Source: an uncultured virus (IMG/VR IMGVR_UViG_3300023184_000097) (taxonomy: Duplodnaviria > Heunggongvirae > Uroviricota > Caudoviricetes). Taken from it: 64,000 nt of DNA. Each line of letters starts with the position of its first letter. Position 1 is the first letter of the stretch. Under the pieces are notes generated by a model that saw only the letters and a program-made list of their open reading frames with translations, did no database searches and was not told the DNA's origin. The position numbers and the translations under genes are program-made. The stretch lies in IMG/VR virus record IMGVR_UViG_3300023184_000097, one strand, 5' to 3'. This document shows positions 41,810-52,577 of the stretch, piece by piece.

Positions 41810-42949
41810 TTAATCTTTTTTAATCCATTTTGAATCTGTTGGAATTTCTTCTTCCTTATTCCAGAAAGGTTTTTGATATTTTGGCTTTAGCATTTTCCAT
41901 ATAATGTGATCATAGTCCTTTCTATCCCACATTGCAAAACATATAGATCTTATGCTTGGCTCAACCTTACAAAATTCTAGATGCTCGGCAAACTCTTTTT
42001 TAGTAGGCTCTGTTTCGCGGTCACTGTATTTACCATATCTAAAGTAATCGTGGACCTTACCTGCTCTCTCACCAATTGCGTATTTACTGTACTTTAAATC
42101 ACGAATCGTTCTCTTAACCCATTTATCAAATTCATCAGGAACTCTATCTAGAAACTCGTCGACATTCTTTCCGTCTTTTAACAGCTCCCAGATATCAACG
42201 TTTGAGAAGTTTGTTATCAACCTATGTAACCTGACGTACTCCTCCCCTTTAATCTTCATTCTGAATCCAGATTTGAATTTGATTACAAATCCTTCTGCAT
42301 TATTCTCGATAATAGATTTCAGTTGCTTGTAATCCTGAACACCATCGTATTTTTTAACAATCTTAAATCCTAGATTGTTGTACATATTAACAAATCTAAT
42401 ACCCTCTAAATGTATGCTATTATGGTGGATTCTAAGTTCATAACCATCTTTGTTATCAATTACCCCAAGAAGTATTAAGTCCTCATAGTCATAGTTGCAC
42501 ACGATCCTGTTTTCGGGATAGATGATCTCGAACAGATAGGTAAATCCTGGGATCAGTCTCTCATATCTGTATTTTTTTAGGATTTCTTTACCCCTTATTG
42601 CCTGCTCAGAAACGAAAGATCCTCTGGTAGCCAAATGCCATTCGCTCTCATAGTGGAAAAGAATTACTAATGATCCGTCCATTTTTTCGAACACTTCAAA
42701 CTCCTCATTTGGAATTTCCTCCGGCTTATGCTCTTCCATGTTGAAGAACTTAGGAAAAGATCTAGCCACAATGTTACCCTCACGATCTAAAACCGTACCC
42801 CTCATATTTAACGTGATTTCATCCCACAATTGCGAAAATTGGCAATCTCTAGAATAGTTATAGATGTCTATAGGCAGAGTTGGGTGAGAATTCTTGATCA
42901 GAAGTCCACGCTCAATATAGTCATTTAATGTGTTTAAATCGTATTTCAT
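41810..42949 (-). CDS. T4 Rnl1-like RNA ligase
   Basis: RG.VLD, FPKFFN, EKMDGS, ATRGSF, FEII.PENRIV, EGFV, KIKGEEY. Confidence 0.9.
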   Translation of the reverse strand: MKYDLNTLNDYIERGLLIKNSHPTLPIDIYNYSRDCQFSQLWDEITLNMRGTVLDREGNIVARSFPKFFNMEEHKPEEIPNEEFEVFEKMDGSLVILFHYESEWHLATRGSFVSEQAIRGKEILKKYRYERLIPGFTYLFEIIYPENRIVCNYDYEDLILLGVIDNKDGYELRIHHNSIHLEGIRFVNMYNNLGFKIVKKYDGVQDYKQLKSIIENNAEGFVIKFKSGFRMKIKGEEYVRLHRLITNFSNVDIWELLKDGKNVDEFLDRVPDEFDKWVKRTIRDLKYSKYAIGERAGKVHDYFRYGKYSDRETEPTKKEFAEHLEFCKVEPSIRSICFAMWDRKDYDHIIWKMLKPKYQKPFWNKEEEIPTDSKWIKKD

Positions 42950-43290
42950 TCTCTTATTACGCGATAATATATTTCTTTTGGGTAATGACCAAATACAAAA
43001 ACTGTAACTGAGCAAAGCCAAAGTATTTGGTTAATATCTTCCCCCTTGAAAGTGTGAGCTATGTAAGTAGCTCCGGATTCGTCACTCTCGTATAGAACTA
43101 TTTTCTCTGTTAGCGAATCCTGATCCGATAAAGCTAATGTAACAGCTTCTCTGTTTTCTGAAATGAAATCCAGCCAATCATCAGCTCCTGCTACCATCTC
43201 GCACTCCTCCTCTGTTCCTCCTTGAGCAATATACTCCGGAAGATCAGCATACCATCTTCGATCTTCGCCTTTATAAAATCTTATTACCAT
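42946..43290 (-). CDS. DUF6717-like protein
   Basis: WYADLP, MVAGAD, WLCSVT..VFG.YP. Confidence 0.6.
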   Translation of the reverse strand: MVIRFYKGEDRRWYADLPEYIAQGGTEEECEMVAGADDWLDFISENREAVTLALSDQDSLTEKIVLYESDESGATYIAHTFKGEDINQILWLCSVTVFVFGHYPKEIYYRVIRE

Positions 43291-43795: not shown

Positions 43796-44626
43796 TTAAA
43801 TTGGAAGTTTTATCCTACTTAAAAGACTATTTGAGACGTGTGTGTAAATTTCTGTTGTTTTAGAGCTGGAATGACCTGCTATTTTTTGAATAATCCTTAG
43901 ATCAGTTCCTGATTCTAATAGGTTGGTGAAAGAGGAATGCCTTAGTGTATGTATTGATGACCCGTCATCAATGTATTTTTTATAAATTTGCTGACAGCTT
44001 CGTATTGAATACAATGAAGAATTTTGCCCATTAAAAAGATAATCTGAAGGTTTATACTCTTTAAAATATTCTCTTAGCAAAGTTAAAACAGTTAATGACA
44101 GCGGAACTATCCTATCCTTTCTGCCTTTTGCGTTTTTGATGTGTATAAGCATCCTTTTTGAGTCAATATCTTCAATCTTTAGATTAACTATTTCAGACAC
44201 CCTTAATCCAACTGAATAGGTTAGTGTTAAGATTGCTTTGTGTTTCAGATTACCAATCTTGTTTAGTTTTTCTTTTATAAATTCACCATCAATAACTCTG
44301 GGTAGCTTCTTTTCCGATTTTGGTCTTTTAAACGATACCTTATCGTATTTCTTATCAAGTCCGTACTTATACAGAAATCTAATAGCGTTAATAACCTGGT
44401 TTTGTTGAGAAACAGAGGTGAATTGATAATTATCTAGATATGATTGAAAATCTTTGGAACTACAATGAATTATCTGTTTGTCATTAAGAGTATTAAGAAA
44501 ATCTTTAATATGACACATATAATTGTCTTTTGTTCTTGGTGAGTAGTTTAAATATATAAACTTTTCCTCACAAATCTTTATAATTTTTTGATTCAAAGTG
44601 TTGATATTAAATGGTTTATGGTACAC
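43796..44626 (-). CDS. Tyrosine recombinase (integron-integrase-like, lacking the IntI-specific insertion)
   Basis: SAM-like N domain (SQQNQVINAIRFLY), KLPRVI, GLRVSE, AKGRKDR, HTLRHS, GHSS, TTEIYTH: all R-K-H-R-H-Y residues present. Confidence 0.92.
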   Translation of the reverse strand: MYHKPFNINTLNQKIIKICEEKFIYLNYSPRTKDNYMCHIKDFLNTLNDKQIIHCSSKDFQSYLDNYQFTSVSQQNQVINAIRFLYKYGLDKKYDKVSFKRPKSEKKLPRVIDGEFIKEKLNKIGNLKHKAILTLTYSVGLRVSEIVNLKIEDIDSKRMLIHIKNAKGRKDRIVPLSLTVLTLLREYFKEYKPSDYLFNGQNSSLYSIRSCQQIYKKYIDDGSSIHTLRHSSFTNLLESGTDLRIIQKIAGHSSSKTTEIYTHVSNSLLSRIKLPI

Positions 44627-44656
44627 TTACTTATATATAATAGTTATACACAATGC
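44627..44656 (+). other. attI-like site / start of cassette 1 (G|TTATACACAATGC at 44643)
   Basis: GTT core with no preceding hairpin; 13/14 reverse-complementary to GCACTGTGTATAAC (45136-45149). Confidence 0.7.
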
Positions 44657-44703
44657 TACATTTCTACTTCTAATCAAGTTCATCTAATAAAAATTAAAAA
44701 TTA

Positions 44704-45081
44704 TTAGTCATTGATTACATCCCAAGTAAAAATTGAATGGATAACTATTTCACCATCTTTATATTGTTCTGATGTTCCTGTGCTTCTTATTCCAAATATA
44801 CAATTCATATTATTAATAAAATTGTCTGCTTGTTTTCCGTTATCATTATTCAAAAATTCAACATCACCATAAACTTTACCATCTACAAAAGTTAAATTTT
44901 TAATTGAATGTGATGCTCTTGATAACGAAATCTCAAATGTTTCTGGATTCCCTATTTCACCAAATAAACATCCAATTTTATTAATTTTTTCATTCAATTT
45001 TTCTACTTGTGTTTCTGCACTTTCTATATTAATACCTTTCCATCTTTCAGTATTAAAATCTGTCAATAAATAATTTTTCAT
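44704..45081 (-). CDS. Cassette 1: prohead-protease-like (gp21) degenerate homolog
   Basis: FGEIGNP...ISLSRASHSI...VYGDVEFL...NGK...FGIRSTG. Confidence 0.55.
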   Translation of the reverse strand: MKNYLLTDFNTERWKGINIESAETQVEKLNEKINKIGCLFGEIGNPETFEISLSRASHSIKNLTFVDGKVYGDVEFLNNDNGKQADNFINNMNCIFGIRSTGTSEQYKDGEIVIHSIFTWDVIND

Positions 45082-45142
45082 AATTTTTAATTTTTTTATA
45101 TTTGTTTTTTAATTAAAGTTTCTACCAAATAAACCGCACTGT

Positions 45143-45237
45143 GTATAACAAGGTGTATAAGAAAGTTTGCTGTTAAGTTCAGTTGTAATTTGAAAATTTA
45201 TCTAAGCAAACCTTCTCATACACCAAAACCGTTATAA
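45143..45237 (+). repeat. attC-like site 1 (95 bp)
   Basis: GTATAAC; arms GGTGTATAAGAAAGTTTGCT / AGCAAACCTTCTCATACACC; AACC-GTTATAA. Confidence 0.9.
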
Positions 45238-45468
45238 AACATTTCCTCGCTTCTTTAGTTCTTCCATCATCCATTTTGCTCCTTTATCGTGATAGCACCA
45301 CGCTACCCCTTGCACAAACTCTGCCTCTATCCTGCACACCCTCAACGATTCCTTATGTATTTCATCATCGCTCGGAAACGATTTTATAACATAGGATTTA
45401 TTCAATTGCTCGGCTTTGTAGTCAGCAATAACTTTTTCTGCTTTTTTCAACTGTTCTTCTGTTATCAT
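45232..45468 (-). CDS. Cassette 2 hypothetical protein
   Basis: Likely start MITEEQ inside the site 2 loop; stop is the TAA of the core. Confidence 0.6.
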   Translation of the reverse strand: MITEEQLKKAEKVIADYKAEQLNKSYVIKSFPSDDEIHKESLRVCRIEAEFVQGVAWCYHDKGAKWMMEELKKRGNVL

Positions 45469-45516
45469 ATTTTGTAATTTTTTATTCGCAACTAAATAAA
45501 TCCTCAACCGTTATAT
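45384..45516 (+). repeat. attC-like site 2 (133 bp)
   Basis: Arms AGGATTTATTCAATTGC / GCAACTAAATAAATCCT. Confidence 0.9.
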
Positions 45517-45801
45517 GCAATTAAAAATGGGCAACGACCACCGTTTTGCATTTGGAAATTTCTTTTTATACATTGCTTTCACTCTAAGTTTTACGAGTTC
45601 TTTAATCTGTTCATCATTCATCCAAGAAGCACTTTTATCACTTAATCTTGTAGAAACAATTATAGTAGCTTCTTCGTCAAGTAGAAATGGGTGTCCGTGT
45701 TTAAACTCGTAAAACCACCTTTTCAACTGCCCATTTTTAACAGCATATAACAAAGTATTGCCAATAGTGGGGGTTTCGTGCTTTTTTGAATCTGTGTGCA
45801 T
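45511..45801 (-). CDS. Cassette 3 hypothetical protein
   Basis: Starts in the site 3 loop, stops at the core TAA. Confidence 0.6.
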   Translation of the reverse strand: MHTDSKKHETPTIGNTLLYAVKNGQLKRWFYEFKHGHPFLLDEEATIIVSTRLSDKSASWMNDEQIKELVKLRVKAMYKKKFPNAKRWSLPIFNCI

Positions 45802-45876
45802 ATTTTGAACTTTAGTTTGTTAATTGAACTTTGGTGGTGTAATGCCCCACCATCGGCAATACTTGGAACGTTATCG
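45745..45876 (+). repeat. attC-like site 3 (132 bp)
   Basis: Arms AAGTATTGCCAATAGTGGGG / CCCCACCATCGGCAATACTT. Confidence 0.9.
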
Positions 45877-45888
45877 GCAAGTTTGGTT

Positions 45889-46152
45889 TCAATTTTTTTC
45901 CTTCCCGCAGTAGTGCGAATGCCAACCGTCAATCTTATTTAGAATTTCAGTTGATATTCCTTTCAACAATAATTCGTCCTGTTCAACAAATTTCTGTTCC
46001 CACCTTGCCCCGCACTTACATACCCAATCAACATGGAATGATGTTGAGCAATCCATGAATTTACTTATTCGGTGCATCTTGTAATGATGCTCCACCGCTT
46101 TCCATTTCCAGAACAGAAATTTTTTCTCTACTATGCAATTATTGTTTTCCAT
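45889..46152 (-). CDS. Cassette 4 hypothetical protein
   Basis: ORF between sites 3 and 4. Confidence 0.6.
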   Translation of the reverse strand: MENNNCIVEKKFLFWKWKAVEHHYKMHRISKFMDCSTSFHVDWVCKCGARWEQKFVEQDELLLKGISTEILNKIDGWHSHYCGKEKN

Positions 46153-46215
46153 TTGTATATTTATTTAATGATGAAATTCTAAACCCTCAGCACAAAAATT
46201 GAAACCAAACCAGAC

Positions 46216-46301
46216 CGATAACAACGGATATAAGAAAGTAAAAAATTCTTGTTTATTTTTCATTGGTATTTTTTCCCTTCTCATATCCGCAACCGTTAGC
46301 A
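46216..46301 (+). repeat. attC-like site 4 (86 bp)
   Basis: Arms CGGATATAAGAAAG / CCTTCTCATATCCG. Confidence 0.88.
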
Positions 46302-46514
46302 TCAATGCCTACGAATCTGACAAATTAAATTGTATAGATGTAAATAACTTTTATCTTCACAATTATCCATACCGCTATTTGATGGGTTCTTTGATGCGTA
46401 CCTCAATGCTGTATAAACAGATTCGCTTTTAAGCCATTCCGTTAAGGCACTGATGCTAACACCACCTATACCCAATTGGGCATCTTCTTGTTTGTTAATA
46501 TTTTCGTGTTCCAT
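46302..46514 (-). CDS. Cassette 5 hypothetical protein
   Basis: Starts in the site 5 loop (QLGIGGVSIS crosses the core). Confidence 0.55.
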   Translation of the reverse strand: MEHENINKQEDAQLGIGGVSISALTEWLKSESVYTALRYASKNPSNSGMDNCEDKSYLHLYNLICQIRRH

Positions 46515-46586
46515 ATTTACTTTATTTTAAGTTGATTATTTTGTCTTTAAAATTGCCCAACTGGGCATAGCTGCAAAACGTTATGG
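46454..46586 (+). repeat. attC-like site 5 (133 bp)
   Basis: Arms CTATACCCAATTGGGCA / TGCCCAACTGGGCATAG. Confidence 0.88.
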
Positions 46587-46618
46587 GAAATTTTAAAAAC
46601 CTTTTCCCACCGCACGGG

Positions 46619-47077
46619 TTAGTCTTCATCATCAATAATCCCTTTATCAATTAGCATTTCTTTTACCTTTTCCCAATTAACATAAGGTCTGCCAACTTGC
46701 TTAATACTTTCGTCACCATCTTTTACAATGTCAACCAAAAGTGGGCATCCTAAAGCAGCATCATCAATGTAAAGTTGTGCGTATGCTTTCGGGCTTGTAG
46801 TCCAAGTGTGCTGTATCGGGTTGGTTTGTATTCCGTAAAGTGGTATTTCGTTTTGTTTAAACCAATCAATTGCATCAGTTAAATAGTTTCCGCTTTCAAG
46901 GTGCAATTCATTGTCCTCTCCCGTTGGATTAACTATGTCGCTTCGCATTGTAAACAAAACTAATTGGTGGTTATTTTTAACCAACTCTTTTAATACAGGC
47001 ACAGCACCAATGTCTTTGCCCACTTTTGGAAATTCGTGTGTTACGCAAGTTCCATCAAAATCAATCGCTATTATCAT
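46619..47077 (-). CDS. Cassette 6: HAD-superfamily phosphatase (BT0820-like)
   Basis: MIIAIDFDGT, LFTMRS, K.YA.LYIDD. Confidence 0.8.
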   Translation of the reverse strand: MIIAIDFDGTCVTHEFPKVGKDIGAVPVLKELVKNNHQLVLFTMRSDIVNPTGEDNELHLESGNYLTDAIDWFKQNEIPLYGIQTNPIQHTWTTSPKAYAQLYIDDAALGCPLLVDIVKDGDESIKQVGRPYVNWEKVKEMLIDKGIIDDED

Positions 47078-47122
47078 TATTTCGTTTTTAAATGCCCACC
47101 CTAAAAGGTTTTTAAAACTATC

Positions 47123-47216
47123 CCATAACACGGGTTTGGCAAAATGCCGCAGGACAGTTAGTGCTAAAATTCAAGTTTCGAGTAGCGGCACTTCGCCAAG
47201 CCCGAAATCGTTAGCA
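47123..47216 (+). repeat. attC-like site 6 (94 bp)
   Basis: Arms CGGGTTTGGCAAAATGCCGC / GCGGCACTTCGCCAAGCCCG. Confidence 0.9.
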
Positions 47217-47456
47217 GAAATGCTTATTGAGCGCATCACATATAATTTCAGCTTCTGCCCTGTCGAATGTTTCGCACATTGAACGCTTCCAGTAATCACC
47301 ATAAGCTTCTTTACCTGCTGCGGTATCAATTATTGTGCATTCAAAACAACAATGTGCTGAAACGCTTTCATCAACAATTATATACCTCGCACTGCTGCTA
47401 ACATCGGCTTGTTGCAATGCCTTACTTTCGTCTGTAATTGAACTTTTGTTTTCCAT
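47211..47456 (-). CDS. Cassette 7 hypothetical protein
   Basis: Starts in the site 7 loop, stops at the core TAA. Confidence 0.6.
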   Translation of the reverse strand: MENKSSITDESKALQQADVSSSARYIIVDESVSAHCCFECTIIDTAAGKEAYGDYWKRSMCETFDRAEAEIICDALNKHFC

Positions 47457-47526
47457 TTTATCTTTTGTTTTTAATTGAACATTTGTTTTTCAAAATCGGC
47501 ACTTCATTTATACCCAACCGTTAGCG
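47396..47526 (+). repeat. attC-like site 7 (131 bp, poorly paired or hybrid)
   Basis: TGCTAAC...CAACCGTTAGCG ends present; arms pair only over TGCC/GGCA. Confidence 0.75.
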
Positions 47527-47781
47527 GCAAGGCTTACCACTTCCATCTGAAAATAATGTGCAGTCAGGAAACGCATCCATGTAATCTGCCATTGCTCTAA
47601 ATTCTGCTCTACTCCAATTGTCGGGGAACATTATTTTATCAGCATAATTACTTGTTGTGCCTTTCGGAATAAATGCAGCTTGACCAAGAGATGTTCGTCT
47701 AAACTCCAGCCCAGCCGCTAACAAATGCTTGGATGCAATTGCTTGTTTCCGTTTTCTAAAAATATTTTTAATCCAATTCAT
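47521..47781 (-). CDS. Cassette 8 hypothetical protein
   Basis: Starts in the site 8 loop, stops at the core TAA. Confidence 0.6.
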   Translation of the reverse strand: MNWIKNIFRKRKQAIASKHLLAAGLEFRRTSLGQAAFIPKGTTSNYADKIMFPDNWSRAEFRAMADYMDAFPDCTLFSDGSGKPCR

Positions 47782-47846
47782 GTTTCCGTTTTTTAATTAA
47801 GTTTATCGTTCAATTTCGCAACTGCACCAAGCATCAACCGTTAGTT
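47716..47846 (+). repeat. attC-like site 8 (131 bp)
   Basis: Arms ATGCTTGGATGCAATTGC / GCAACTGCACCAAGCAT. Confidence 0.88.
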
Positions 47847-48026
47847 GCAATTTGCCCAATCGCACACAAAAGACTTTGGTATTCTAATAAATATTTCTGT
47901 TTCAGTAAGTTTAGCACATTTGAACCTTTGAATGGTGCTTGAAATTGCCACCCACAAAAAAACTGCAACTAACAGCACATAAGCAAAAGCAAGGGTGTTG
48001 TGGTAAAATGATGATTTCTTTTTCAT
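47841..48026 (-). CDS. Cassette 9 small membrane protein
   Basis: TM helix is encoded across the hairpin arm and core; stop at the core TAA. Confidence 0.6.
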   Translation of the reverse strand: MKKKSSFYHNTLAFAYVLLVAVFLWVAISSTIQRFKCAKLTETEIFIRIPKSFVCDWANCN

Positions 48027-48098
48027 ATTAAATTCTATTTTAAAGTTAAATTTTTGTTTTCTAAATCCTTGCCTTCGCCTATCTGCAAACCGTTAGTT
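47967..48098 (+). repeat. attC-like site 9 (132 bp)
   Basis: Arms GCACATAAGCAAAAGCAAGG / CCTTGCCTTCGCCTATCTGC. Confidence 0.88.
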
Positions 48099-48365
48099 GT
48101 AATATTGTTCCCACTCACTTTTGAAGTATTTTATAAGTTCGTTTTCCTTATCAAATTTCTTTGTGTAATCAATATTTAAAAAATGTGTTTTGAAATCATG
48201 TAACATATCATCAATCGCATCTTCAACAGTATCACATTCGTCATAGTAACCAATTTCACTATCAACCCATTTTTTAATATCATCAATACTACAACTAACA
48301 TCAGATATATGTAATTTTTTATTACTCTTATCCAAGTTTTGTTCTAAATTTTTATCTTTATTCAT
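48093..48365 (-). CDS. Cassette 10 hypothetical protein
   Basis: Starts in the site 10 loop (LHISDVSCS), stops at the core TAA. Confidence 0.6.
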   Translation of the reverse strand: MNKDKNLEQNLDKSNKKLHISDVSCSIDDIKKWVDSEIGYYDECDTVEDAIDDMLHDFKTHFLNIDYTKKFDKENELIKYFKSEWEQYYN

Positions 48366-48415
48366 ATTATTTAAGTTTTGTGTTAAACAACTACATATAT
48401 CTGTGACCGTTATAA
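48293..48415 (+). repeat. attC-like site 10 (123 bp)
   Basis: Arms CAGATATATGTAATT / AACTACATATATCTG. Confidence 0.88.
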
Positions 48416-48430
48416 GTAATAAAACAAAAA

Positions 48431-48598
48431 TTATGAATTTAATAATGTTTCTAACTCTTCTATTAGAATTTTACATTTTTCAATTCGTTCTCTTCTTGTT
48501 AAACCACCTGTTTGTTTAATCCAAACTCTATCTTTATCAGTTACATGTTTGTATTCATCATATAACTCTTTTAACCTATTTTCAATTTTTTCTTTCAT
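48431..48598 (-). CDS. Cassette 11 small coiled-coil protein
   Basis: MKEKIENRLKEL... between sites 10 and 11. Confidence 0.55.
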   Translation of the reverse strand: MKEKIENRLKELYDEYKHVTDKDRVWIKQTGGLTRRERIEKCKILIEELETLLNS

Positions 48599-48623
48599 AT
48601 TGTATAATTTTTGTTTTACATAC

Positions 48624-48677
48624 TTATAACAAAGTGTAAAAAACATTAAAACGATTTTTTACACTCAACCGTTATGT
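48624..48677 (+). repeat. attC-like site 11 (54 bp, minimal)
   Basis: Arms AGTGTAAAAAA / TTTTTTACACT. Confidence 0.88.
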
Positions 48678-48698
48678 GCCATTTTAGGAAACACCCCG

Positions 48699-49766
48699 TT
48701 ACTCATTGTTTTTAAGAAGATATTTATTGTTTATCACTTTGAAACTTAAATTATCTTCAACGCAACGCCAAACTAAACCCTCAACATCTACTGATGGATT
48801 AATCACGTCTTTAATTTCAGACAAAGCCAATATTTCGGGTAAAGAGTGATTTAAAACAATTTCCTTATACATTGGGCAATGTGGAATATTATTTGCCAAA
48901 CAAGTTTTTATAAATTCCTGTTGGTTTAATCTTTTGCCGTTTACATTGATATTAAACAACCTAATTTGCTCTTTTTGTAAGTTGTGGTGGTTGCCGTTAA
49001 ATTTGCCTATTGCTTCGCCTTGTACAATTATATCATCAGTTTTAAAGTGCTTTACAAGTTTTGCAATTTCATATTTAAAATTAGTATCAGTAAATACTTT
49101 GTACCAATCATTTTTTTTGTCGTGCAATTCAAATCTTCTACTGCAAATTCTAAACTTACTTTTACCAAAAACCTTTGAATGAATTATTGTAATACTACTA
49201 CCATCAAGTTTATAGCTTACTACAAATAATTTACCAGCGTATTGTTGTAATACATGTGGTATATTTTGTATTCTTTCTTCATCGGTAATTGATACCAAAT
49301 TTTTAGGGAATGGAGAACGGCTTAACCTTTGTAATTTTGGGAACAACTTGAAAAGGAAATTATATTTAAACAAGTAAATCCATTTCTTATACCATTTTTT
49401 AGACATTCTTGGCTTCTCATAGCGTTCTGGGTTATTGTCTGGCTTCTCGTATTTCTTTACTCCCAAAACCTCTGTAATATCATCGCCTTCTTTCCATTTA
49501 CCATTAGGTAAAGGAACTACAAGCCCCTGCGAAATTTGTTTACGCAATTTGATTGTTCTTACTCTAAATTTCCGTTCCCTTAAAAATTCATATTCGGGTA
49601 GTTCGGGAACTACTGTATCAATCTGAATGTAACTACATAAGTCACCCACTTTGTATTCGCCTTTTTTTACTACAATTTCCCAACCTAATACGGTTGCTGT
49701 TTCTATCAAATCTGCACCCTCAATTGGGGTTAATTTGATTACTTTTTGTACACTTGCTAAATTCAT
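48699..49766 (-). CDS. Cassette 12: RNA ligase, DRB0094 family
   Basis: LASVQ..PIEGAD, SQGLVVP, TDEERIQN, KLDGSS, QGE, EGLV, SFKVINN. Confidence 0.9.
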   Translation of the reverse strand: MNLASVQKVIKLTPIEGADLIETATVLGWEIVVKKGEYKVGDLCSYIQIDTVVPELPEYEFLRERKFRVRTIKLRKQISQGLVVPLPNGKWKEGDDITEVLGVKKYEKPDNNPERYEKPRMSKKWYKKWIYLFKYNFLFKLFPKLQRLSRSPFPKNLVSITDEERIQNIPHVLQQYAGKLFVVSYKLDGSSITIIHSKVFGKSKFRICSRRFELHDKKNDWYKVFTDTNFKYEIAKLVKHFKTDDIIVQGEAIGKFNGNHHNLQKEQIRLFNINVNGKRLNQQEFIKTCLANNIPHCPMYKEIVLNHSLPEILALSEIKDVINPSVDVEGLVWRCVEDNLSFKVINNKYLLKNNE

Positions 49767-49817
49767 ATTTTGTTTATTTTAAAAATTAATAATTTGAAGT
49801 CCATAAGAAAAAACGGC

Positions 49818-49912
49818 ACATAACAAGGTGTATATGTAAGTTTTTTATTTAGTTTTTAGTATATATTAAAGTTTAATTTCAAAAAACCTACACATACACT
49901 CAACCGTTATAA
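49818..49912 (+). repeat. attC-like site 12 (95 bp)
   Basis: Arms GTGTATATGTAAGTTTTT / AAAAACCTACACATACAC. Confidence 0.9.
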
Positions 49913-50149
49913 CTCATTTTTAGAAAGAGCCGTATTTACTATTGTTATCGCTTTTTTTATTTGAGATATAGTTTTAAATTCTGGCGTAATATCACTCAAT
50001 TCTTCATCAGTAAGTGTTTCACATAAATAATTATATTCTTCATCATTTATTCTCCAAAGTTGTTTATACATATCGTCAAAAGCATCGGTAATACCACCGA
50101 ATCCTTTATAAACTATTTCAGTTCTGTTTTTTCTTTCAAATCGAGTCAT
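49907..50149 (-). CDS. Cassette 13 hypothetical protein
   Basis: Stops at the core TAA. Confidence 0.6.
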   Translation of the reverse strand: MTRFERKNRTEIVYKGFGGITDAFDDMYKQLWRINDEEYNYLCETLTDEELSDITPEFKTISQIKKAITIVNTALSKNEL

Positions 50150-50161
50150 AATTAAAACGAG

Positions 50162-50254
50162 TTATAACAAGGTATATGTGAAATACCTCCTAAAGTTTCT
50201 ATTTAATTTTTAAGTTTTGTGGTAAGGTACTTCACATATACCCAACCGTTAGGT
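50162..50254 (+). repeat. attC-like site 13 (93 bp)
   Basis: Arms GGTATATGTGAAATACCT / AGGTACTTCACATATACC. Confidence 0.9.
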
Positions 50255-50452
50255 TCAATCATTAATTTGTTTTGGGTTTTCTAAATCTTTGATTGTGTTT
50301 TCAACCATCCGGTTTGCGGTCCTTTTTCTCTCAGATGGTTTGACCTTTACAACATCAACAAAATCAACACCGAATTGAATTGCCGTTTCTACTAAATGAA
50401 TTAGTTCTTCTTTTAATGTTTCTATTTTTTCCATATTCCATATTTTATATTA

Positions 50453-50519: not shown

Positions 50520-51314
50520 ATGGAAGATATCAAGAAATGTAAGATATGCGGATTCGAAACAAAGTCAAATAACGGATTCGGAAGTCACATAAAACAGAAC
50601 CATAAAATAGATACCAAGGATTATTATGATCAATACGTTTTAAATGGGGAGAAGATAAAATGCAAGCAGTGTGATAGGGAAGCTTCATTTAATAATATAG
50701 CTAAGGGATACAGAGAACATTGCGGTAAAAGCTGCAGCAAGAAAGTTCAACCAAATGCTGTGGGCTGGGCTTATGTACACAAGGAAGGATATGAACCTTG
50801 GAATAAGGGTAAGCCAATGAGTGAAGAATATAAGAGCAATTGGAAGAATGGGATTAAAGATACCGAATGGGGATCAAGCACGCCATGGAATAAAGGAAAG
50901 AAGATGAGTGATGAGCATAGAACTAATTGGGAAAATTCATTAAGAGATACTAAATTCGGGAAACACCATAACGAGGAGACTAGGAAAAAGCTAAGAGTAA
51001 TTTTTATTGATAAGCTTAAAGCAATCGATAAAAAATTCCATCCTCCATATAGCAAAAAAGGCTGCGAGTACTTTAATAAGCTAATGGAAGAAACCGGGAT
51101 TAGAATTCAACACGCAGAAAACGGGTGTGAATTTCACGTTAAAGAACTTGGATATTGGGTAGATGGATATGATAAAGAAAATAACACAGTTTATGAATGG
51201 GACGAAAAATACCACTATATAAATGACGAATTAAAAGAAAAGGATAGACTAAGACAAAAGGCTATCGAGGAATTTCTTGACTGCAAGTTTATCCGTATCA
51301 GAGAAAGCTACTAG
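50520..51314 (+). CDS. Putative homing endonuclease (Zn finger, NUMOD-like PWNKG repeats, C-terminal PD-(D/E)xK/vsr-like domain)
   Basis: CKIC..H..H, PWNKGK x2, YWVDGYD...YEWDEKYH. Confidence 0.75.
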   Translation: MEDIKKCKICGFETKSNNGFGSHIKQNHKIDTKDYYDQYVLNGEKIKCKQCDREASFNNIAKGYREHCGKSCSKKVQPNAVGWAYVHKEGYEPWNKGKPMSEEYKSNWKNGIKDTEWGSSTPWNKGKKMSDEHRTNWENSLRDTKFGKHHNEETRKKLRVIFIDKLKAIDKKFHPPYSKKGCEYFNKLMEETGIRIQHAENGCEFHVKELGYWVDGYDKENNTVYEWDEKYHYINDELKEKDRLRQKAIEEFLDCKFIRIRESY

Positions 51315-51372
51315 AATCTTCTCATGACGTAAACTTTCTTACTCGCCTGGTGTAGGCTGTATATTCGATTCT
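51311..51372 (-). pseudogene. Relic duplicate of the dda helicase 3' end
   Basis: Translates RIEYTAYT(R)ASKKVYVMRRF* (1-nt deletion) versus Dda RILYTSYTRASRKLYVLRRF*. Confidence 0.85.
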
Positions 51373-51407
51373 ATAGTTAGATATATATATATATATAAAC
51401 TAACAAA

Positions 51408-52577
51408 ATGGCGAAAAAACATCATCTGATTTATTTAATATTAAATCTAGTAAATAGTAAAATCTATATTGGGTGTCATTCCACATATAATATTAATGAT
51501 AACTATATGGGATCAGGTAAATTAATTAAACTAGCTATTAAAAAATACGGAATAGAGAAATTTAAAAAAATTATATTGTATGATTTTGATAGTAGAAATA
51601 AAATGTTAGAAAAAGAAAAAGAACTAGTAAGTAACGAATTTATATTAAATGAAAATGTATATAATATCACTTTAGGTGGTGGTGGAGGGGGAAGCTGTGG
51701 AGTTGTCACGGTTAGAAATAAAAAAGGGGATACGTTTCAGACCTCAGTTAATAATCCAGAGTACTTAAGCGGAGAATTAATATTTATATCAACAGGATAT
51801 GTTACTGTTAAGGACGGGGAGGGAAAGACCCAACAGGTTTCAACCGATGATCCTAATTATCTTAATGGTGATCTAAAAAGTATACATTGTAACAATGCTG
51901 TAGGAAGGGATAAAAATGGAATTATTCGTTATGTTAATAAGGACGAATTCAAAAATGAAAAAATGACAGGTATAATAAAAGGAACAGTATGTGTAAATGA
52001 TAAAAATGGTAATAACATAAGAATAAAAACCGACGATCCAAGATTAAAAAGTGGTGAGCTAATTCATAAATTTACACATAAAGTAGTTGTTAAGGATGGA
52101 GGCAAAAATTTAATATTGGATCGAAATGATCCTCGATTTATATCCGGTGAATTACAGGGTGTTACTAAGGGAACAATACCAGTTAAAGATGTTAGCGGTA
52201 ACGGAATGAGGGTTAAAATAGATGATCCTAGATTGGAATCTGGAGAATTGAGACACGTAAGTAAGGGGATGAAAAGATCAACGGATGCTAAATTAAAAAT
52301 GAGCAATGTTCATAAAAATACCATCTGGATAAATAATTGCTTTGATAAAAATAAAAAGGTTAAGGCTGACCAACTAGAAAAATGGATATGTCAGGGATGG
52401 TGTTTGGGAAGAATCGTTGATAAAGATAAGTTAAATATCACTGACGAAAGTCGAAAAGGCATGGGAAATTCATCAAGGGGTAAAAAATGGATAAATAAAT
52501 CAAAAAAATCAGTTAGGGTTGATGTGCAAGAAATCGATAAATATATTAGTGACGGATGGAGTTTGGGTAGATTCTAA
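51408..52577 (+). CDS. GIY-YIG (Seg-like) homing endonuclease with C-terminal repeats
   Basis: LIY...KIYIGCH, YMGSG, YN; repeated VKDxxG...DDPRxxSGEL units. Confidence 0.85.
   Translation: MAKKHHLIYLILNLVNSKIYIGCHSTYNINDNYMGSGKLIKLAIKKYGIEKFKKIILYDFDSRNKMLEKEKELVSNEFILNENVYNITLGGGGGGSCGVVTVRNKKGDTFQTSVNNPEYLSGELIFISTGYVTVKDGEGKTQQVSTDDPNYLNGDLKSIHCNNAVGRDKNGIIRYVNKDEFKNEKMTGIIKGTVCVNDKNGNNIRIKTDDPRLKSGELIHKFTHKVVVKDGGKNLILDRNDPRFISGELQGVTKGTIPVKDVSGNGMRVKIDDPRLESGELRHVSKGMKRSTDAKLKMSNVHKNTIWINNCFDKNKKVKADQLEKWICQGWCLGRIVDKDKLNITDESRKGMGNSSRGKKWINKSKKSVRVDVQEIDKYISDGWSLGRF

Follow-up and report, generated by a model that had tools for sequence, protein, structure and literature searches.

In the current view of integrons, docking of extrahelical bases by the I2 helix of the integrase enabled both the recombination of single-stranded attC sites and the choice of the strand to be recombined (excerpts of PMC7790495 and PMC5027507), and I2 is regarded as an innovation towards single-strand recombination (PMC7790495). 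An Xer-type enzyme without I2 also acts on a hairpin in the case of XerCD and the attP site of phage CTX, where the folded strand mimics a duplex core site (PMC7790495). In T4-like phages, the stem-loops known as PeSLs surround small accessory genes in variable regions with modular shuffling (excerpts of PMC2839356 and PMC4122927). Clusters of attC-type sites and cassettes have been found with a classical attC model in virulent phages, including a Polaribacter phage, and tested with IntI1 (excerpts of Qi et al. 2023, PMC9892861), and almost no integrons are reported in Bacteroidetes in the consulted part of the IntegronFinder 2.0 article. Here we describe an array of hairpins in a stretch of 64,000 nucleotides (nt) from an uncultured virus of the class Caudoviricetes (IMG/VR record IMGVR_UViG_3300023184_000097), referred to below as the window. 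Thirteen imperfect hairpins lie next to the gene of a tyrosine recombinase related to Xer and IntI. We consider it probable, with some reserve, that they are the attC-like sites of an integron-like phage cassette array served by this adjacent, insertion-less recombinase, and that fixed wobble pairs mark the strand that folds and are most likely read by the recombinase.

The array contains 14 GTTA cores (Table 1). The first of these, located 16 nt from the start of the recombinase open reading frame (ORF), has no hairpin, and each of the others closes one of 13 TAAC-hairpin-GTTA sites. The cores thus delimit 13 units, each of which runs from one GTTA to the next, has the hairpin site at its end and carries one ORF on the minus strand. 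All 13 ORFs lie on the strand that folds and are directed towards the attI-like site. Each GTTA is followed by 14-16 nt that can pair with the nucleotides preceding the next TAAC, in line with the rule for integrons that the first bases of a circular cassette pair with its inverse core. The ORF starts inside the hairpin loop in several units, therefore the hairpin to the right of an ORF is part of the unit of that ORF. The hairpin-less core belongs to a conserved element next to the recombinase gene. The motif TAAC-TAT(T/C/A)ATATATA was found upstream of the recombinase in most of the 78 loci with enough upstream DNA, and a few loci have a variant or lack the TAAC. This attI-like element would be the point at which the cassettes are inserted.

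The base composition of the stems follows a strict pattern. The original prediction, made from the letters of the window alone, held that the base 15 nt after TAAC is an A in all hairpins (16 nt in site 8 with its bulged A), and this is the case in 13 of 13. The accompanying claim that this A always faces a C holds for 12 hairpins and fails for site 11, where the A faces a G at the loop edge; ten of these pairs in the L stem, the stem within the site, were assigned automatically, and those of sites 7, 8 and 11 by hand. An A was likewise found, as expected, at position 11 of each of the 14 GTTA cores. In all 13 cassettes it faces a C across the R stem, which joins the two ends of a cassette, and this C is located 11 or 12 nt from where the TAAC of that cassette ends. 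The remaining arm mismatches had been thought to be nearly all A/C as well. When the first 16 stem positions were counted in the 11 sites found by a strand-symmetric detector, which missed sites 7 and 8, the plus strand showed 21 A/C mismatches, one G/T and six others; for a split of 21:1, the one-sided binomial p is about 5e-6. Another fixed A/C pair, the third, lies beside the core, where an A follows TAAC and a C precedes GTTA in 13 of 13 sites; it corresponds to a G·T pair on the minus strand. Eleven of the 13 L stems are free of gaps over 16 positions, and in six of the 13 R stems position 10 of the minus strand has either a T/T mismatch or an additional T. The bubble between the stems is asymmetric as predicted; it measures 1-3 versus 4-6 nt (about 1-2 versus 5-6 nt in the prediction).

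To compare the strands, the sites were rebuilt as they would appear at the junction of a circular cassette and both strands were folded with the Mathews 2004 DNA parameters, a check that the original prediction had proposed. The minus strand is more stable in all 13 sites, by 0.9-9.2 kcal/mol. The same comparison was extended to the recombinase family. Relatives of the recombinase are encoded by 217 viral contigs, and the best 80 loci, with recombinases 62-96% identical, were analysed with the strand-symmetric detector, which treats G·T and A·C pairs alike. The 465 sites of these loci contain 801 G·T and 93 A·C pairs on the integrase-sense strand. In the 313 non-redundant oriented sites from 67 loci, the numbers are 527 and 41 (binomial p about 1e-108, a value that overstates the evidence because the sites share ancestry and are not phylogenetically independent). 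The base 15 nt before GTTA is a T in 308 of these 313 sites; it stands against a G in 258 (82%) and forms a Watson-Crick A-T pair in 14. Neighbouring site pairs define 266 non-redundant cassettes, 216 of which have complementary ends that make an R stem of 14-15 bp. Position 11 of this stem is G·T in 209 of the 216 (97%) and Watson-Crick in three. The rebuilt junction sites are more stable on the integrase-sense strand in 276 of 283 cases, with medians of -23.3 and -18.4 kcal/mol for the two strands.

The stems also show covariation. RNAalifold, applied to 60 aligned sites from the class of 86-90 nt, gave a stem of 19 pairs with compensatory changes in 16 of them, yet 58 of the 60 sites keep G·U as the wobble pair. 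In the same alignment, 95.6% of the cells are paired, compared with 66% in shuffles and 34-58% with slid partners, and 309 cells are changed on both sides, compared with 89 in shuffles. The prediction that only the bottom strand folds well is thus supported: the minus strand of the window is the integrase-sense strand and corresponds to the "bottom" strand of integrons, and the bias is tied to the polarity of the site throughout the family. The folding of one DNA strand only is well supported, and the family-wide G·T pattern is real and not in doubt despite the shared ancestry of the sites. Besides the main array upstream of the recombinase gene, one locus of the family (L048:18273-20602) has seven further sites in a separate run, about 7.5 kb downstream of the gene.

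The frequencies of bases at each position in the phage family show how the site is built. The strand entering the spacer has the sequence A(84%) T(98%) T(72%) N4 A TAAC in the R arm; the L-arm sequence is A T(98%) T N4 A T A(98%) Y, with TAY in place of TAAC. The L arm is thus a degenerate version of the R arm, an arrangement that is also found in the core sites of other tyrosine recombinases. Each of the two wobbles is formed by the central T of ATT against AGT, at a distance of 7 nt outwards from the T of the core (TAAC or TAY), and the G of both lies on the strand that runs 5' to 3' away from the spacer. The spacer has 7 nt on the 5' strand (the consensus GGTTG and two more, which pair) and 4 nt on the 3' strand. 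Beside the crossover, a G follows TAAC in 96% of the sites and a T precedes GTTA in 98%, which could give a third wobble. The original prediction had placed two conserved wobbles at the flanks of the bubble. Both are indeed conserved, but they do not simply flank it; they occupy equivalent positions in two pseudo-symmetric arms and are joined by the third G·T at the core. Such an equivalence is expected if two recombinase monomers each meet the same feature.

In the phage loci, the longest ORF lies on the folding strand in 320 of 328 cassettes. The folding strand of the phages is therefore the coding strand, which makes G·U-tolerant RNA hairpins or transcription-linked deamination real rivals to an explanation at the level of DNA. 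The bacterial relatives are informative in this regard. The same sites were found in loci from bacteria and metagenome-assembled genomes, mostly of Bacteroidota, with recombinases of 42-54% identity. In 52 cassettes from 31 of these loci, the complementary ends of 14 bp are present and the G·T pair at position 11 is kept. Of these 52 cassettes, 51 have a folding strand that is antisense to the recombinase gene, and in 41 of 45 the longest ORF is on the strand opposite the folding one. Because the bacterial grammar sits on the non-coding strand, the strand of the wobbles follows the polarity of the site (the TAAC with the long side of the spacer, and attI) and not transcription. The attI-like TAAC element of the bacteria is located about 100-150 nt past the stop codon of the recombinase gene, and the attI-like sites have a direct repeat about 45-50 nt further on. 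In these relatives (loci L082-L161, for example L159:6877-10262, L115:8771-12257 and L129:2727-4115) the array lies downstream of the recombinase gene. The cargo of the bacterial cassettes includes HEPN, GNAT, MerT/HMA and TetR genes.

A related arrangement was noticed on the Acinetobacter baumannii plasmid NZ_CP104336.1 (L163:8055-10240). Here tet(X3) is immediately preceded by the gene of a shorter tyrosine recombinase, 48% identical, with an attI-like TAAC element between the two genes. Behind tet(X3) stands one half of an attC-like site, the left one. Counted from the cores, positions 8-16 of the two flanks of tet(X3) can pair with each other, and position 11 is A/G. Because of these flanking attI-like and attC-like features, tet(X3) looks like a first cassette carried off from such an array.

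The recombinase of the window was compared with known families. Against the NCBIfam models it scores 176 bits for XerA_Arch (cut-off 220), 142 for XerC (cut-off 335) and 141 for XerD (cut-off 330). The integron-integrase model integrase_gron (TIGR02249) gives 145 bits with a cut-off of 265 and a match split in two stretches, and NF011946 gives 94 bits with a cut-off of 435. The XerA-type and integron-integrase models are thus the best-scoring ones, and every curated cut-off is missed. The protein aligns to residues 17-180 and 260-311 of the Vibrio IntI4 (2a3v), and between these segments 32 of its residues face 80 of IntI4. Similarly, 263 residues of the recombinase cover 313 codons of IntI1. 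By these alignments, the insertion that carries the I2 helix is absent from the window recombinase. The enzyme does not qualify as a chromosome-dimer resolvase of the XerC, XerD or XerA type, as its scores stay below the cut-offs and its gene adjoins a phage cassette array and not a dif site. Its relatives usually have 266-267 aa. Metagenomic homologues number in the thousands, and where the source gives a name, it is XerD. Among isolated phages, a megablast search with the region gave no match, and the best protein relatives there are below 40% identity. The runs that contain at least half of the sampled words of the region come from metagenomes recorded as lake water or freshwater.

The cassettes show signs of exchange between loci. 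The cassette at 45870-46295 has a homologue in the phage locus L047, where it is placed amid unrelated flanks, and the limits of the homology are the TAACG cores. Among 56 homologous cassette pairs between loci, both neighbours differ in two and one neighbour differs in seven more. Metagenome contigs from lakes and freshwater, assembled in different studies, leave the window right behind a GTTA, at 49909 in three runs (X3, X4 and X6) and at 47213 in one (X8); these are divergences of assembled contigs only and hence weak evidence. This suggests that variants of the array exist in natural populations. The cassettes are thus independently mobile units bounded by TAACG cores. Contigs were also seen to depart at 50252 and 44649. 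All four of these points lie at a GTTA core or immediately behind one, and at two of them the sequence that takes over opens with the same 13 letters. Where the sides of a contig joint measured 20-33 nt, the joint was disregarded as a probable repeat of similar hairpins.

Based on these observations, the following mechanism can be proposed. In a circular single-stranded cassette, or in an extruded site, the integrase-sense strand folds into the R stem, an asymmetric spacer and the L stem. The R stem, of 14-15 bp, is made from the two ends of the cassette, and R and L would be the pseudo-symmetric arms that bind one recombinase monomer each. The two fixed G·T pairs, the third one beside the core and further floating G·T pairs would keep the integrase-sense strand folded, and the hairpin of the complementary strand would be left with A·C mismatches. 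There would therefore be one good substrate strand and one orientation of cassette entry. The recombinase most likely senses the wobbles directly, and they would then do the job of the extrahelical bases docked by I2; it is plausible that they stand in for these bases. As judged from the cassette boundaries, the crossover would take place within the TAAC of the folded strand, against the double-stranded attI-like site by the recombinase gene.

Explanations that do not involve recombination of a folded DNA strand have to be considered. The phage arrays fold on the coding strand, an ATG is present in 130 of the 144 loops of the long class, and many ORFs start there, so the hairpins might act in RNA as intercistronic stem-loops for termination, processing or control of translation, with G·U pairs merely tolerated; PeSLs occur in T4-like phages (PMC2839356 and PMC4122927, in part). 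We regard this as very improbable, since the bacterial grammar lies on the strand opposite the ORFs, the R-stem wobble pairs the two ends of a cassette, which a transcript would keep 200-1200 nt apart and which are adjacent only in a circle, and the core-bounded cassettes move as units alongside a conserved attI-like site and a dedicated recombinase. In Rfam, no family scored above threshold, and the two sub-threshold matches, both miRNA-like and on site 13, are due to chance. The wobbles could also be a functionless by-product of mutation that favours one strand, such as deamination of cytosine on the non-template or lagging strand. Changes from C to T on the coding strand would turn G-C pairs into G·T in the phage arrays, and transitions dominate the mismatches. 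It is hardly credible, however, that such a process would keep positions fixed with 97-98% base identity across recombinases that are only 62% identical, and the polarity in bacteria follows the site and not the coding strand. After the result with the bacterial strand, the RNA-level and mutation-bias readings are disfavoured and were set aside. Recombination could also proceed on duplex DNA, with the difference of C:G and A:T at position 11 making the half-sites unequal and ordering strand exchange. Asymmetric duplex sites are common among tyrosine recombinases, and the recombinase lacks the helix that is described as a step to single-strand recombination (PMC7790495). We nevertheless give this little credence. 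The sequences of the arms vary between cassettes and their complementarity is kept (the 309 versus 89 cells mentioned above), which points to pairing and not to the reading of a sequence. The L arms are 3-90 bp apart as duplex and do not form a normal core site with a spacer of 6-8 bp, and an Xer enzyme without I2 does recombine the folded single strand of phage CTX (PMC7790495).

A closer rival accepts the system and the folded strand and denies only that the wobbles are read by the protein. Their role would be purely thermodynamic: they would steady one hairpin, weaken the hairpin of the other strand as well as long perfect palindromes in the duplex, and allow hybrid R stems to arise within the array by way of the conserved ATT/AGT triplet. 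The excess of G·T is indeed seen at the non-fixed positions as well (489 versus 89 without position 15), the median gap in stability amounts to 4 kcal/mol, and in classical attC sites the unpaired features of the spacer and loop act on strand choice indirectly via stability (PMC5027507, in part). We consider this explanation unlikely, though it deserves attention. Wobbles with such a role should float, yet two positions are G·T in 82-97% of cases and T in 98% while the adjacent pairs covary freely, and they are found at equivalent positions of both arms in the conserved ATT/AGT context.

The reading that we prefer, in which attC-like sites fold on one strand and the recombinase senses their wobbles, has several points against it. 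Strand choice could result from the gap in stability alone, and the asymmetric spacer by itself already tells the strands apart. Site 11 and the short class as a whole have no L-stem wobble in the same register, and 50 of the 266 consecutive site pairs lack clear complementarity of their ends. The T beside the R-stem wobble is unpaired or mismatched in 71 of the 216 R stems (an extra T in 41 and a T/T mismatch in 30), therefore features that resemble extrahelical bases do occur. Within the array, only part of the R stem can form. Circular cassettes and strand-specific cleavage are predicted from the sequence, and the shared ancestry of the sites, which inflates the p-values, counts here too.

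Table 1. Recombinase gene, attI-like site and hairpin sites of the array; positions refer to the window, and pairs are given in plus-strand bases.
Feature	Position	Strand	GTTA core	L pair	R pair	Remarks
Xer/IntI-like tyrosine recombinase	43796..44626	minus				276-aa ORF, without IntI insertion; Pfam Phage_integrase and SAM_4
attI-like site	44630..44646	minus	44643			TAAC and conserved TA-rich element; no hairpin; directly upstream of recombinase start
Site 1, 89 nt	45146..45234	minus	45231	A45164/C45212	A44653/C45139	
Site 2, 127 nt	45387..45513	minus	45510	A45405/C45492	A45241/C45379	Extra T on minus strand at R pair
Site 3, 126 nt	45748..45873	minus	45870	A45766/C45851	A45520/C45741	Stem closely resembles bacterial sites
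Site 4, 80 nt	46219..46298	minus	46295	A46237/C46277	A45880/C46211	
Site 5, 127 nt	46457..46583	minus	46580	A46475/C46561	A46305/C46450	ORF 46302-46514 (minus) begins within loop
Site 6, 88 nt	47126..47213	minus	47210	A47144/C47191	A46590/C47118	
Site 7, 125 nt	47399..47523	minus	47520	A47417/C47502 (hand-read)	A47220/C47392	Degenerate near core
Site 8, 125 nt	47719..47843	minus	47840	A47738/C47822 (hand-read)	A47530/C47712	Bulged A at 47733
Site 9, 126 nt	47970..48095	minus	48092	A47988/C48073	A47850/C47963	ORF begins in loop
Site 10, 117 nt	48296..48412	minus	48409	A48314/C48391	A48102/C48289	
Site 11, 48 nt	48627..48674	minus	48671	A48645 at loop edge vs G	A48419/C48619	Short class; adjacent pair C48644/A48654
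Site 12, 89 nt	49821..49909	minus	49906	A49839/C49888	A48681/C49814	
Site 13, 87 nt (50165-50251) and R base to 50258	50165..50258	minus	50248	A50183/C50230	A49916/C50158	
14th core (the core of site 13)	50248..50251		50248			A at 50258 is position 11

Some further features of the array were noted. Three length classes of sites, of around 48, 88 and 126 nt, recur throughout the family. In some of the long loops, such as those at 45748-45873 and 47970-48095, there are three repeats of about 20 nt with a GCAC/AAnTTCAA-like motif, as do bacterial sites, and these repeats could be binding sites for an accessory factor. In phage cassettes with an ORF that starts in the loop (46457-46583 and 47970-48095 of the window, and loci L031, L062 and L065), the 3' arm and the GTTA core are translated, and such ORFs of unrelated cassettes share similar N-terminal peptides that end in Q-L-x-I-G-A-V. 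Cassette 12 carries a gene for a 355-aa RNA-ligase-like protein (48699-49766) with the PHA02142 OB fold and RNA_ligase. Of the 12 other cassette ORFs, 11 (all except 45511-45801) were compared with Pfam and PHROGs; eight gave no match and three matched a PHROG only. The genes of the array are flanked in the window by genes for a T4-type RNA ligase and for GIY-YIG and NUMOD3 endonucleases. The ligase, of the T4 Rnl1 type, is encoded at 41810-43021, and the NUMOD3 and GIY-YIG/SegE-like homing-endonuclease-like genes are located just past the far end of the array, at 50520-52577.

No published description of insertion-less arrays or of wobble-marked attC sites was found in a search that most subscription papers lay outside of. 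It is possible, and we propose it tentatively, that these arrays represent a widespread sister lineage of integrons without I2, present in the chromosomes of Bacteroidota and in large freshwater phages, in which the G·T at the eleventh pair of each arm and the wobble at the crossover are read as an identity mark. The G3·U70 pair of tRNA-Ala is a parallel for a wobble in such a function. If this is true, single-strand cassette recombination did not need the innovation of I2, and phages run a gene-capture device of their own, with cassettes in the opposite gene orientation. Hundreds of arrays that combine an insertion-less recombinase with position-fixed signs of one-strand folding offer a test of the need for I2. 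They also provide a view of the collection of accessory genes by large phages and a sequence rule with which such arrays can be found; integron finders keyed to IntI are likely to miss them. The link to tet(X3) on the Acinetobacter plasmid suggests that these elements matter for the origin of some resistance genes.

The array shares with the PeSLs of T4-like phages the stem-loops around small accessory ORFs, the location in variable regions and the modular shuffling. PeSLs are described as regulatory motifs that are shuffled by homologous recombination, without mention of a dedicated recombinase. The array differs from them in having a recombinase, an attI-like site, complementary ends specific to each cassette, and bacterial counterparts with the grammar on the non-coding strand. 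With XerCD on the attP of CTX it has in common an Xer-type enzyme without I2 and a hairpin that would mimic a duplex core site. In contrast to CTX, where one phage genome, dif and host enzymes are involved, the enzyme is encoded by the phage, the array has multiple cassettes and there is an attI-like site of its own. Qi et al. also reported attC-type sites and cassettes in virulent phages; the section on attC clusters in PMC9892861 makes no mention of a phage recombinase without the insertion, of wobbles at fixed positions or of ORFs in reversed orientation.

The comparison with classical integrons reveals both shared and distinct features. As in these, a recombinase gene stands beside a conserved attI-like site that is followed by one-gene cassettes. 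The cassette ends in an imperfect hairpin with TAAC...GTTA cores, and its inverse core is complementary to the start of the same cassette. On the folded strand, the AAC triplet is part of the 5' arm, the central spacer is unpaired and the loop is variable (PMC5027507, in part). One strand is preferred, and it is the integrase-sense strand. Classical attC sites are imperfect inverted repeats with R''/L''/L'/R' boxes and RYYYAAC...GTTRRRY cores, and the crossover takes place in the core. In the attC-like sites described here, TAAC/GTTA cores are accompanied by R and L arms, a spacer and a variable loop, and the homology of cassettes ends at TAACG. Unlike the classical integrases of the IntI clade, which carry I2 in an additional domain inside the catalytic domain, the recombinase has no I2 insertion, and the R stem has 14-15 bp and not 7. 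When the four attC sites of one class 1 integron were folded, they showed bulges and 0-2 G·T pairs, a sample that is too small to say that classical sites never use G·T. Where the classical sites carry extrahelical bases in the L box, the sites described here have a fixed G·T instead. Finally, classical cassettes have promoterless ORFs on the top strand, read away from attI and Pc; the ORFs of the phage cassettes lie on the folded strand, point towards the attI-like site and often start within the loop.

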